From Escherichia coli (GTDB lineage: Bacteria; Pseudomonadota; Gammaproteobacteria; Enterobacterales; Enterobacteriaceae): a DNA stretch of 64,000 nucleotides. Both the position numbers and the translations under genes were made by a program. Of this stretch, positions 2,952-45,383 are shown piece after piece (position 1 is the first letter of the stretch; each line of letters starts with the position of its first letter). The stretch is taken from the NCBI RefSeq assembly GCF_003019035.1, contig NZ_CP027447.1; one strand, 5' to 3'. Below the pieces are notes generated by a model that was not told the origin of the DNA, made no database searches, and saw nothing but the letters and a program-made list of their open reading frames with translations.

Positions 2952-3902
2952 CTATATCTGATAATCAATTTCCTCTTCACTGTTCTCCATCACCTGGCGC
3001 TTGATATCCTCAACTGACAGTCCTGCATTACAAAGTTCCAGAAAGCGCCAGACATAGTTACGTTGAAGTTGCCCTCGCTTCAGTCCCATCCAGACAGTAT
3101 TAGCATCGAAAAGATGCCTCGTATCCAGACGGATTAAATTCTTTTCCTCTTGTTCACCACTGGATTGTTCGGCAACTAATCCGATCCCCAGCCCAAGAGC
3201 AACATAGGTTTTAATGACATCAGAATCCTGCGCACTTAATACAATATCTGCCAGCAAACCTTTGCGGACAAATGCGTCATCAATACGTGAGCGCCCCGTA
3301 ATCCCCTGTCGGTAAGTGATTAACGGCCACTTCGCTATTGATTCCAGCGTCAACGGTGTAATTTGCGTCAAGGGATGATCGAGTGGAACAAGCAAACTAT
3401 GGTGCCAGCGAAACCACGGGAAGGCGGCGAGCTGCGGGTCATTACTCAAACGCTCGCTGGCGATACCAATATCAGCTTCGCCATTTTGCAACAACGTCGC
3501 AATTTCCTGTGGTGTACCCTGGATTAGCTCCAGCCGAACCTCCGGGAAAAGTTCGCGAAAAGCTTTAATGACCTCAGGCAAGCTATAACGTGCCTGAGTA
3601 TGCGTCGTTGCAATAGTGAGAACGCCAGACGTATCGTTGGTAAACAGGTCTGCAAGCCGACGAACATTACTGGCTTCATTAAGAATGCGTTCTGCAATGA
3701 CCAGTAATGCTTTGCCCGGTTCAGTCATGCCCAGCAGTCGCTTACCTCGTCGAACAAATATTTCGATGCCAAGTTCATCCTCCAGTTCCCGAATATGACG
3801 GCTGACGCCTGACTGTGAGGTAAAAAGCATATTCGCAACCTCTGTCAGGTTGTAATCCTGACGTGCAGCCTCGCGGATTATCTTTAGTTGTTGGAAATTC
3901 AC
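2952..3902 (-). CDS. cbl: LysR-family regulator Cbl (sulfur-starvation / cysB-like)
   Basis: 316-aa ORF with N-terminal LysR helix-turn-helix (MNFQQLKIIREAARQDYNLTEVANMLFTSQSGVSRHIRELE…); immediately downstream of nac, as in E. coli. Confidence 0.88.
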   Translation of the reverse strand: MNFQQLKIIREAARQDYNLTEVANMLFTSQSGVSRHIRELEDELGIEIFVRRGKRLLGMTEPGKALLVIAERILNEASNVRRLADLFTNDTSGVLTIATTHTQARYSLPEVIKAFRELFPEVRLELIQGTPQEIATLLQNGEADIGIASERLSNDPQLAAFPWFRWHHSLLVPLDHPLTQITPLTLESIAKWPLITYRQGITGRSRIDDAFVRKGLLADIVLSAQDSDVIKTYVALGLGIGLVAEQSSGEQEEKNLIRLDTRHLFDANTVWMGLKRGQLQRNYVWRFLELCNAGLSVEDIKRQVMENSEEEIDYQI

Positions 3903-5327: not shown

Positions 5328-5357
5328 AAAAAAGCCTGCTTTCTAGCAGGCTTTTTG
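5328..5357. terminator. Bidirectional terminator (asnV / ldtA)
   Basis: Hairpin aaaagcctgc-tttct-agcaggctttt with flanking T-tracts on both strands. Confidence 0.55.
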
Positions 5358-26332: not shown

Positions 26333-26776
26333 ATGCAACGTATGATGCTTATCGGCCCCAGCCAGTGCGGAAAAACGTCACTCACGCAATGTCTGCGTGG
26401 CGAAAATATTCATTATCAGAAAACGCAGGCAATCGTCTGGTCCCCGACCACCATTGATACACCAGGCGAATACCTCGAAAACCGCAGCCTCTACAGTGCA
26501 TTGTTGGTCAGTGCCTGCGAAGCAGACATTATCGCGCTGGTACTTAATGCGGGCGCACCGTGGTCCCCTTTTTCGCCAGGCTTTACCTCGTCAATGAATC
26601 GTCCGGTCATTGGAGTAGTAACCAAAGCAGATTTAGCCAGCATGGAACAAATATCTTTGGTGAAATGTTGGTTACGGGAAGCTGGAGCGCACAACGTGTT
26701 AGTAACCAGTGCGGTTAATAACAATGGAGTTACAGAACTTTTTGCCTTGCTGCATACAGAAGATGTCTGTCGCTAA
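26333..26776 (+). CDS. pduV: Small GTPase-like protein PduV
   Basis: 147-aa ORF with P-loop ([21 protein letters not shown]…); last pdu gene present. Confidence 0.88.
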
Positions 26777-26834
26777 TTTCGATAGGTTATCAGATGGGAA
26801 TGATGACTTTGATACACAGAAAAGAATCAATGAG

Positions 26835-26863
26835 CAATGAGGGTTGCCGGGCAACCCTCATTG
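26835..26863. terminator. Strong hairpin between convergent pduV and yeeX (likely bidirectional terminator)
   Basis: Near-perfect palindrome caatgagggttgcc-g-ggcaaccctcattg; T-rich tract follows on the minus strand (yeeX side). Confidence 0.55.
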
Positions 26864-26876
26864 AATAAAACAGGAA

Positions 26877-27206
26877 TTACTTCGCTTCGCCGTTTTTCAT
26901 TTCGCCCATAGCTTTCAGCTTTTTGGAGATATCGCGGCGTTCTTTGGAGAGCTCGGCATTTTTGATGATGTAATCGTCAACGCGATCTTCATAGTCACCT
27001 TTCATGCTGGCGATGATGCCCTGGATTGCTTCAACGCTCATCCCTGGCTTGATGTAATCGCTCAGGTTGTCCAGCAACAGGACGCGCTTCTGGTTGTCAC
27101 GGATCTTTTTCTCAACGTCCTGAATTTCACGTTGCAGTTTGTTCTTACGACGGAACAGACGAACAAATTCCAGTACGTCCTGGAATGAAGGCTTGGTAGT
27201 TTCCAT
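26877..27206 (-). CDS. yeeX: DUF496-family protein YeeX
   Basis: Start set at [39 protein letters not shown]… (109 aa); matches my memory of E. coli YeeX. Confidence 0.88.
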
Positions 27207-27377
27207 TTTTATACCCCTGATAATGTGAGAGTCGGATTCGTTTAAGCAACCGCTATTCGTTAGGGCCAACATTACTCATAGCTGCCGCAGATGACAATGC
27301 TTTTATCCCTTTTCACTATCATACCCTTTATCCTTGCTGAATCGAAGCAGCAGCAAGATGATTCTGAAGTTCAGGAA

Positions 27378-32311: not shown

Positions 32312-33370
32312 TTAATTTGCCGCAGCAGTTGCCAGTCGCGCCTTACGCTGCGGTCGAACATACACAAGCCAGGACGCAGTCCAGACTCCGAGAATCATAA
32401 ATACAAGGCCAATCCAGCCCTGCCAGGTCATCATTGCAGTCATGACCAGTCCATTACCGATAGAGCAACCACCTGCAATGCTGGCACCGAAGCCCATCAG
32501 TACACCACCTAACCCGCTACGTAATGTTGTTTGTGCATCAGCAGCACGAACGCGGAACTCACGGCTCGCTTTGGCGGCAATAAATGACCCCACGAAGATC
32601 CCTAACACCAGGAAAACGCCCCAGTTAATGTATTTCACGTCACCCGCGACCAGAAATTGCAGAATATTGGCCGTTGGGGAAGTGATGCCTAACCCAAACA
32701 TACGTCCGGTTGCTTCACTCAGGGGCCAGGCTAAAAGCGCAATCAAACCGATGAGTACAGCTGTGACAAAGGGATGCCAGCGTTTTTCAAACAGAATATG
32801 AGCGATCCCGGTTCGGCGCGGCGGTAAGGTCGCGACTTTGAGTTTTGGCTTCTTCAACTCTTTCATCACCACCCAGAGCGTTATCACCAGCAAAACGGCA
32901 ACCAACGGCCACACAGACAAATTAAAAGTATCAGCAATAGAGTTATGTTCAGTAGTGTAGTGCTGCAAGGTTTGATTTAAACCACTGGCGTGTGGAGAAC
33001 GCATCACCGCACTCATCACCATATAAGTGAAAAGCGCGATCCAACTGCCGATCAATCCCTCACCCGCGCGATACCAGGTCCCGGTGGCACATCCACCCGC
33101 CAGAACAATTCCCAGCCCGAAAAGATACCCACCTATAACAGTACCAAGCCACGGGAACGCCCCGGCTTCGTAAGTCAGTAGGCCCGCCTGAATTAACGCA
33201 AAAACCCCCACGCTTTGTACCGAAATTGCAATCAGCAAGGCGTAAAACATGCGATTATTTTTCGCGATATACATATCGCGAAAACCACCTGTCAGGCAAA
33301 AACGCCCACGCTGCATGACAAATCCCAGCAGAGCACCACAAATTAGCCCGCTTAATATCATTGAAAACAT
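32312..33370 (-). CDS. yeeE: Thiosulfate transporter YeeE (TsuA family)
   Basis: 352-aa multi-TM ORF upstream of and adjacent to yeeD. Confidence 0.88.
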   Translation of the reverse strand: MFSMILSGLICGALLGFVMQRGRFCLTGGFRDMYIAKNNRMFYALLIAISVQSVGVFALIQAGLLTYEAGAFPWLGTVIGGYLFGLGIVLAGGCATGTWYRAGEGLIGSWIALFTYMVMSAVMRSPHASGLNQTLQHYTTEHNSIADTFNLSVWPLVAVLLVITLWVVMKELKKPKLKVATLPPRRTGIAHILFEKRWHPFVTAVLIGLIALLAWPLSEATGRMFGLGITSPTANILQFLVAGDVKYINWGVFLVLGIFVGSFIAAKASREFRVRAADAQTTLRSGLGGVLMGFGASIAGGCSIGNGLVMTAMMTWQGWIGLVFMILGVWTASWLVYVRPQRKARLATAAAN

Positions 33371-37450: not shown

Positions 37451-37513
37451 TCTTTCAGGCGATGTGTGCTGGAAGACATTCAGATCTTCCAGTGGTGCAT
37501 GAACGCATGAGAA

Positions 37514-37549
37514 AGCCCCCGGAAGATCATCTTCCGGGGGCTTTTTTAT
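37514..37549 (+). terminator. his attenuator terminator
   Basis: agcccccggaaga-tcat-cttccgggggct followed by tttttatt, between hisL and hisG. Confidence 0.9.
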
Positions 37550-44709: not shown

Positions 44710-45383
44710 TGCGCCTATAAGGCTCTCTTACCAGCCGCGCCCTAACAGGCGCACACGATCTGACATTTGCATCCAACTTCGTTACTTACGGCCCGTAAAC
44801 GGGCTGCCCGGATAGGGAATCGATAACTGCTCTCCCATTTTATCCTCTTCAAGCTGGTGCTTTATGTAATCCTGTATCTTCGCCGTGTTCTTACCCACCG
44901 TATCGACGTAATACCCTCTGCACCAGAACTCCCTGTTCCTGTATTTGAATTTCAAATCAACAAACTGCTCGTAAAGCATTAGACTGCTTTTCCCTTTCAG
45001 ATATCCCATAAAGCCGGATACGCTCATTTTGGGCGGGATCTCCACAAGCATATGGATATGATCTGCACAGCATTCAGCTTCCAGAATCCGTACACTTTTC
45101 CACTCACACAGCTTTCTCAAAATACAGCCTATTGCTCTACGCTTCTCTCTGTAGAACACCTGTCTTCGGTATTTTGGCGCAAATACTATGTGATATTTAC
45201 AGTTCCATCGGGTGTGCGCTAAGCTCTTTTCGTTCCCCATTGGGACCCCCTTTTGATTTCTTGTTTGACACTTGCAGTTGCCAGACCGCAAGGTGTTTTA
45301 ACAAATCAAAAGGGGTTTTAATAACTGGCTCAAAGCTGAAAGCTTTCCGGAACCCCCAGCCTAGCTGGGGGTTTTCTGTGCAC
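44710..45383 (-). mobile_element. IS200-type insertion sequence (IS200/IS605 family); boundaries approximate (about +/-40 bp)
   Basis: Contains a tnpA almost identical to my memory of Salmonella IS200 TnpA, plus the characteristic upstream stem-loops (cccccagctaggctggggg; RBS-occluding hairpin). No terminal inverted repeats are expected for this family. Confidence 0.8.
44782..45237 (-). CDS. tnpA: IS200 transposase TnpA (HUH / Y1 family)
   Basis: MGNEKSLAHTRWNCKYHIVFAPKYRRQVFY…CCADHIHMLVEIPPKMSVSGFMGYLKGKSS…; HxH motif present; ORF track begins at an upstream in-frame Met. Confidence 0.9.
   Translation of the reverse strand, partial: GNEKSLAHTRWNCKYHIVFAPKYRRQVFYREKRRAIGCILRKLCEWKSVRILEAECCADHIHMLVEIPPKMSVSGFMGYLKGKSSLMLYEQFVDLKFKYRNREFWCRGYYVDTVGKNTAKIQDYIKHQLEEDKMGEQLSIPYPGSPFTGRK

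Follow-up and report, generated by a model that had tools for sequence, protein, structure and literature searches.

A long perfect palindrome between pduV and tmaR of Escherichia coli is probably the 3'-terminal stem-loop of the tmaR mRNA

Palindrome and neighbouring genes

The palindrome that lies between the convergent genes pduV and tmaR (yeeX) of E. coli is probably the 3'-terminal protective stem-loop of the tmaR mRNA, of the Rho-dependent class described by Dar and Sorek (2018; PMC6061677). The Rho-dependent transcripts of that class have their steady-state ends immediately behind stable stem-loops without a U-tract; rut sites are located just downstream, and the ends arise from trimming by PNPase or RNase II (PMC6061677). 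We also consider it probable that the palindrome is ancestral in the Enterobacteriaceae, as a backbone feature of the tmaR gene, and belongs to the tmaR 3' UTR. The 3' end in question already stands in a published table, where it is not discussed individually, and the hairpin is an uncharacterised member of a well-known class.

The window, the whole stretch of 64 kb that was analysed, was 100% identical to E. coli strain SCU-301, and the annotation of that strain was used. pduV (EutP/PduV family, 147 aa), the final gene of the pdu operon in Escherichia, occupies positions 26333-26776 on the plus strand, and the tmaR coding sequence (DUF496, 109 aa) occupies 26877-27206 on the minus strand in the annotations of both SCU-301 and MG1655. 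TmaR is conserved and regulates the sugar phosphotransferase system (PTS). Since pduV ends at 26776 and the tmaR stop codon begins at 26877, the two convergent genes are separated by exactly 100 bp; these gene calls, their convergence and the size of the gap agree with the first-pass annotation of this DNA. Between yeeA and tmaR, the 16-aa small protein yoeJ is annotated in MG1655 (2079427-2079477; 3428-3478 of locus L084), and the homologous stretch of the window is the tmaR-yeeA intergenic region at about 27272-27322. A 24-codon open reading frame, MGMMTLIHRKESMSNEGCRATLIE (26794-26868, plus strand), runs through the hairpin but is probably no gene and is not conserved, as the K-12 haplotype of the spacer has an in-frame TAA after 9 codons.

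The palindrome spans positions 26835-26863. Its arms, 26835-26848 (CAATGAGGGTTGCC) and 26850-26863 (GGCAACCCTCATTG), are 14 + 14 nt long, 100% complementary and separated by a single central G, so that the perfect-stem palindrome previously noticed in the pduV/yeeX gap is indeed there. As part of the tmaR transcript (minus strand) it is predicted to form a 13-bp stem with a 3-nt loop, and it also folds as plus-strand RNA, with energies of -21.0 and -21.8 kcal/mol, respectively. The fold z-score was about -5, and none of 200 shuffled sequences was equally stable. Among the perfect short-loop inverted repeats of the window the palindrome ranks second in length. It exceeds chance by far; simulated sequences of the same composition gave a chance expectation of about 0.07 repeats with arms of at least 12 nt per 64 kb. 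Toward tmaR, a U-rich linker of 13 nt (UUCCUGUUUUAUU, 26864-26876, minus strand; A-rich when read as plus strand) leads from the stop codon to the stem. On the other side, the 7-nt motif CAATGAG is directly repeated in tandem (26828-26841, plus strand), its second copy being the start of the 5' arm. Elsewhere in the window, a perfect 12 + 12 palindrome with a 2-nt centre was found at 33259-33284 (TTTTCGCGATATACATATCGCGAAAA); its sequence is AT-rich, and it does not resemble the terminator-type palindromes.

The 29-mer is found at a single place in the window, and a 60-mer centred on the hairpin had a median of 1 and a maximum of 2 sites per E. coli genome. As a single-copy element it was ruled out as a REP/BIME element, a dispersed repeat or a MITE. 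It resembles REP/BIME elements in that it is extragenic, is palindromic and stands at an mRNA 3' end, where it would act, as we propose here, as an exonuclease barrier; unlike them it is present once per genome and has no REP consensus. An Rfam search of the hairpin returned only chance-level matches (E of at least 4, bit scores far under gathering).

The tmaR 3' end in K-12

All RNA data considered here are from K-12. The sequence from 26594 onward is common to K-12 and the window, and the K-12 data therefore bear directly on the site; by virtue of this shared sequence, the pdu-positive strain of the window would be expected to behave as K-12 does. In the Term-seq data for MG1655 (Adams et al. 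2021, PMC7815308), a 'primary' 3' end of yeeX was reported at 2078989 on the minus strand, with read counts of 205,828 and 66,213 under two conditions. It appears in three rows of Supplementary file 1 and ranks with the abundant 3' ends under at least two conditions of growth. We checked the coordinate on NC_000913: 2078989 is the C directly 3' of the last stem base, homologous to position 26834 of the window (minus strand). The steady-state end of the tmaR mRNA is thus a precise one, 43 nt after the stop codon and 1 nt past a stable stem-loop that lacks a U-tract, as in the transcripts described by Dar and Sorek. The TERMITe supplements were also checked and had no entry for tmaR/yeeX.

The same study lists a Rho termination region, determined by DirectRNA-seq with and without bicyclomycin, with its peak at 2078833 on the minus strand ('antisense yoeF'; Supplementary file 2 of PMC7815308). 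The peak corresponds to about position 26678 of the window, 156 nt beyond the tmaR 3' end and inside the remnant of pduV that K-12 retains. The Rho score was 14.16 (p 4.5e-50), and coverage upstream/downstream of the peak was 248/25 without bicyclomycin and 290/414 with it, values that are to be read with the 800-nt windows of the score in mind, as the downstream window takes in cryptic-prophage DNA in K-12, where bicyclomycin could switch on independent prophage transcripts. Rho would, in our reading, act specifically on tmaR read-through transcripts.

The sequence just beyond the stem is rut-like in composition. In tmaR sense, the C/G ratio was 2.6 over the 50 nt that directly follow the stem and 1.9 in the first 78-nt window, the latter at about the 95th percentile of the background of the 64-kb stretch. 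The spacer between pduV and the stem (26777-26834), C-rich and G-poor when read on the minus strand, is a candidate rut region that would be trimmed off the mature RNA. An excess of C over G just downstream, together with read-through that is sensitive to bicyclomycin (over 800-nt windows that include prophage DNA), is again what the Dar and Sorek transcripts have.

In the mechanism that we propose, RNA polymerase coming from tmaR would run through the hairpin, because no U-tract follows the stem, and would go on into untranslated C-rich RNA antisense to the end of pduV, to be released by Rho within about 150 nt. The 3'-to-5' exonucleases PNPase and RNase II would then trim the tail to the base of the stable stem, and the outcome would be a precise, protected tmaR 3' end. 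Trimming back to the stem is suggested by analogy with the published class. The tmaR hairpin is like that class in its stem-loop before a precise 3' end, in having neither a U-tract nor an upstream A-tract, in the downstream C-over-G bias, in the bicyclomycin-sensitive read-through and in not being a REP element. It is unlike the class in that we only infer the trimming, in the unusual length of the perfect palindrome (14 + 14) and in its location between convergent genes, where it would be available to both transcripts if pdu is present. The perfect symmetry of the E. coli palindrome would allow it to cap transcripts of the pdu operon as well in pdu-positive strains, and it may do so.

Evaluation as an intrinsic terminator

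The hairpin had first been described as a bidirectional terminator. A stable GC-containing stem-loop, one requirement of an intrinsic terminator, is present on both strands, and the hairpin does stand at a transcript 3' end. However, an intrinsic-terminator consensus scan found no site at the hairpin on either strand. A U-tract (about 5/8 U, beginning 0-2 nt past the stem) was missing on both strands, where the RNA past the stem reads CUCAUUGAUUCUUUUC in tmaR sense and AAUAAAACAGG in pdu sense. T-scores were 1.05 (tmaR sense) and 0.33 (pdu sense), compared to 4.8-5.0 for canonical terminators. By a d'Aubenton-Carafa-style d-score, in our own implementation with modern energy parameters, the hairpin scored -29 in tmaR sense and -43 in pdu sense, while the tmaR terminator of Enterobacter scored +47 and the hisL attenuator +56.

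The polarity of the flanks of the stem is reversed relative to a bidirectional terminator, the 5' flank on the tmaR strand being U-rich (UGUUUUAUU) and the 3' flank on the pdu strand A-rich (AAUAAAAC), and there is no A-tract 5' of the stem to mirror a U-tract. The A/T-tract flanks of canonical terminators were found on four other long palindromes of the window, namely the hisL attenuator (37512-37544) and those at 5329-5356, 2923-2949 and 45351-45373, and are absent at 26835-26863. The published K-12 data likewise place the 3' end outside any U-tract, with a Rho termination region downstream of it. Canonical bidirectional terminators, which consist of an A-tract, a GC stem and a U-tract, are exemplified by the one that follows tmaR in Enterobacter and Lelliottia (GAAAAAGGCTCTCTGGTGACAGAGAGCCTTTTTTT) and by the window palindromes at 5329-5356 and 2923-2949. 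The hairpin shares with them its intergenic position, a stem of comparable stability and a distance of 10-20 nt from the tmaR stop codon, but it has no U-tract, its flank polarity is reversed, its 3' end is at +1 and the read-through downstream is Rho-dependent. What stands of the first description is therefore the hairpin at a transcript 3' end; the lack of a U-tract on either strand, the reversed flanks and the bicyclomycin-sensitive read-through speak against the rest.

The strongest of the alternatives, which we still regard as unlikely, is that tmaR has here a weak intrinsic terminator of non-canonical form, perhaps with help from NusA or NusG. Transcription would then stop a few nucleotides past the stem in an interrupted U-stretch, the end would be nibbled back to the stem, and Rho would only mop up read-through. 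The stem is strong, 6 of the 12 nt after it in tmaR sense are U (CUCAUUGAUUCUUUUC), and mixed or transitional cases were discussed by Dar and Sorek (PMC6061677). Moreover, Enterobacter, Lelliottia and Leclercia, which have no pdu genes adjoining, carry a textbook A-tract/stem/U-tract terminator at the orthologous position after tmaR. Yet the d-score of -29 is far from the +47 of the Enterobacter version, the consensus scan found no terminator at the hairpin, the 3' end falls at +1 and not 7-9 nt inside a U-tract, and the effect of bicyclomycin downstream is strong. These observations argue for the protective stem-loop of a Rho-dependent transcript.

tmaR 3' hairpins in other genera

To follow the hairpin beyond E. 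coli, 80 tmaR loci from species representatives of the Enterobacteriaceae were fetched, of which 73 were parsed. Nearly all of these 73 had a stable hairpin no more than about 20 nt from the tmaR stop codon, whatever lay beyond. A hairpin without a U-tract and with the common core CAGTGAGGAT...ATCCTCACTG was found in Escherichia, Citrobacter amalonaticus, C. sedlakii, other Citrobacter and Salmonella. Kosakonia cowanii and Trabulsiella had related cores (GGTGAGAGC...), with no pdu gene detected within 4 kb. In Salmonella (L047/L051, 4336-4400) and Citrobacter (L015-L019, L037), the TGA stop codon of pduX is located inside the arm of the tmaR 3' hairpin (CAGTGAG), and the convergent genes pduX and tmaR therefore share the structure there.

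Covariation was evaluated on 15 distinct versions from Escherichia, Citrobacter and Salmonella, aligned over the 10 outer pairs of the stem. Standard pairs made up 98.7% of the cells, compensatory double changes were present at 4 of the 10 pairs (14 cells), and the covariation score was above those of all 500 shuffles and of all slid controls. The non-Watson-Crick cells were unevenly divided, with G.U on the tmaR-sense strand in 9 and on the pdu-sense strand in 1, an asymmetry that represents perhaps 6-7 independent events. On the evidence of these alignments, the G.U asymmetry suggests that the tmaR transcript, and not the DNA or a pdu transcript, has been under selection.

Relation to the pdu operon

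The hairpin had also been taken to mark the right-hand boundary of the pdu island, a view that the presence of the same hairpin after yeeX in pdu-negative strains was expected to contradict. We looked for it in such strains and found it. Among 5426 complete E. coli genomes, a 60-mer centred on the hairpin was present in 5270 (5268 at 95% identity or more) and a 1-kb query of tmaR with its downstream region had a match in 5417, whereas pduT-pduU-pduV was present in only 645. More than 4600 pdu-negative genomes, including K-12, have the hairpin downstream of tmaR. An alignment with the region downstream of yeeX in K-12 showed that the hairpin is identical there; in this strain the 29-mer is unaltered and is accompanied by the spacer and by a 3' remnant of pduV of 183 bp (yoeF), which lies next to where the cryptic prophage CP4-44 ends. 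The part of pduV kept as yoeF corresponds to 26594-26776, and its antisense (minus) strand bears the position homologous to the Rho peak. As the hairpin is found in nearly all E. coli regardless of pdu, it is not a marker of the island edge.

The positions at which pdu was lost lead to the same conclusion. Taking the leftmost point of homology to the window as the breakpoint, lineage by lineage (L002, L003, L005, L006, L087 and L092), we found at least six different right-hand breakpoints in Escherichia, all left of the hairpin and stopping 49-356 nt short of it. They are located at 26478 in strain 36C_1_fosA3 (L003), at 26498 in Escherichia sp. MOD1-EC7003 (L005), at 26594 in the K-12 type, whose left neighbours vary (CP4-44 end, IS100kyp or IS110), at 26600 in a cobU-side junction, at 26664 in Escherichia sp. 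E1V33 (L006) and at 26785 where IS1A abuts (L092). The breakpoints differ among lineages, indicating that the pdu operon was lost repeatedly by deletions that ended in pduV or the spacer; in the lineages compared, the hairpin was never the junction. The end of the pdu region in E. coli is thereby corrected, in that the variable part stops within pduV and the hairpin in the gap is that of tmaR. IS insertions between yeeW and yeeX have been reported in a GWAS preprint; they concern the CP4-44 end and not the hairpin.

pduW and pduX, which had been expected at this place, are both absent. Their absence is however not specific to the strain but a trait of the genus, since neither gene was present in the pdu operon at this locus in any pdu-bearing Escherichia examined (E. 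coli, E. albertii and E. whittamii). The gene order is pduU-pduV-tmaR in E. albertii and E. whittamii, and pduV-pduW-pduX-tmaR in Salmonella and Citrobacter. The 58-nt spacer was considered as a relic of pduW or pduX and rejected: when aligned locally with the stretch from pduV to tmaR at six loci of Salmonella, Citrobacter and Pseudocitrobacter, it scored no better than shuffled spacers, and the pduV-pduW junction of Salmonella, inspected for resemblance to the spacer, was unconvincing.

These data also bear on whether the hairpin terminates the pdu operon and tmaR alike, either by itself or through head-on collisions of convergent polymerases there, which we judge to be quite improbable. The perfect palindrome folds equally on both strands and the convergent genes leave a gap of 100 bp; collision-assisted bidirectional termination between convergent genes is described in E. 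coli in a preprint (bioRxiv 10.1101/2022.10.23.513370). On the other hand, the hairpin lacks the A-tract/U-tract pair and has reversed flank polarity, it is fully conserved in the more than 4600 genomes without the pdu operon, and its G.U wobbles fall 9:1 toward the tmaR strand. The K-12 Term-seq data list no plus-strand 3' end at the hairpin, in a strain that lacks the pdu operon and whose plus strand is probably barely transcribed there. A literature search on a pduX or pduV terminator gave nothing relevant.

An element acting at the DNA level (a protein-binding operator, a cruciform, an att or recombination site, or a mobile-element relic marking the insertion of the pdu/cob island) is highly improbable. 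In its favour, a dimeric protein could bind to a perfect palindrome of 29 bp, ISEc12, of the IS21 family, has inserted in it in one strain, and its central base is flipped or deleted in some strains. Against it, the palindrome is single-copy per genome and present irrespective of pdu, its sequence varies across genera while the pairing is kept (including G.U pairs, which are mismatches in DNA), other genera have hairpins of unrelated sequence at this place after tmaR, and the mapped 3' end of the RNA coincides exactly with the base of the palindrome.

Sequence variation and the pduV remnant

The hairpin is nearly invariant across E. coli, whereas the 60-mer adjoining it is strongly polymorphic. 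In a sample of 16 sequences, nucleotide diversity (pi) was 0.079 in the spacer, 0.031 in the pduV remnant, 0.013 in the hairpin and 0.010 in the tmaR coding sequence; the sample had been picked for spacer diversity, and searches of the whole collection gave the same contrast between hairpin and spacer. The segment 26756-26826, which covers the end of pduV and the spacer, is dimorphic, with a window type and a K-12 type that differ at about 5 linked sites in 40 nt and of which recombinants exist. It is far more diverse than the hairpin, tmaR and even the pduV remnant.

One further reading, speculative and on balance doubtful, is that in pdu-negative E. coli the yoeF/pduV remnant is not neutral and has been retained because its antisense strand, the spacer and the hairpin together make up a module for Rho-dependent termination and processing of tmaR. 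As hints in its favour, the six independent breakpoints consistently spare the hairpin and, in most cases, 110-360 nt beyond it, pi is lower in the remnant (0.031) than in the spacer (0.079) in the small sample chosen for spacer diversity, and the K-12 Rho peak falls inside the remnant. Against it, strain Br_178_kylling has lost the whole remnant to IS1. In a related reading, the tmaR terminator may have switched from a canonical intrinsic form, such as that of Enterobacter, to a Rho-dependent one without a U-tract in lineages where convergent pduX or pduV abutted or overlapped it; the hairpin lacks a U-tract wherever a convergent pdu gene adjoins tmaR.

The hairpin is an ordinary feature and the practical consequences are small. 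The locus offers a clean, evolutionarily supported example of a 3' stem-loop without a U-tract on a gene that has a canonical intrinsic terminator in neighbouring genera, and can be used for studying switches between Rho-dependent and intrinsic terminators. When pdu or yoeF is to be engineered or deleted, the hairpin and about 200 bp beyond it should be kept in order to spare tmaR expression.

A few strains depart from the common form of the hairpin. LH13-b (L086) has C in place of G at the centre and has lost one CAATGAG copy, and Br_178_kylling (L092) lacks the centre base; neither strain is altered in the stem. The divergent strain E69 has changes at the two outermost stem pairs. In E. coli TUM9812 (L085, 2400-5000), ISEc12 (istA/istB) is inserted in the 3' arm of the palindrome at a site homologous to about 26854-26858 of the window, with a short target duplication (AACCC or ACCC), and separates tmaR from half of its hairpin.
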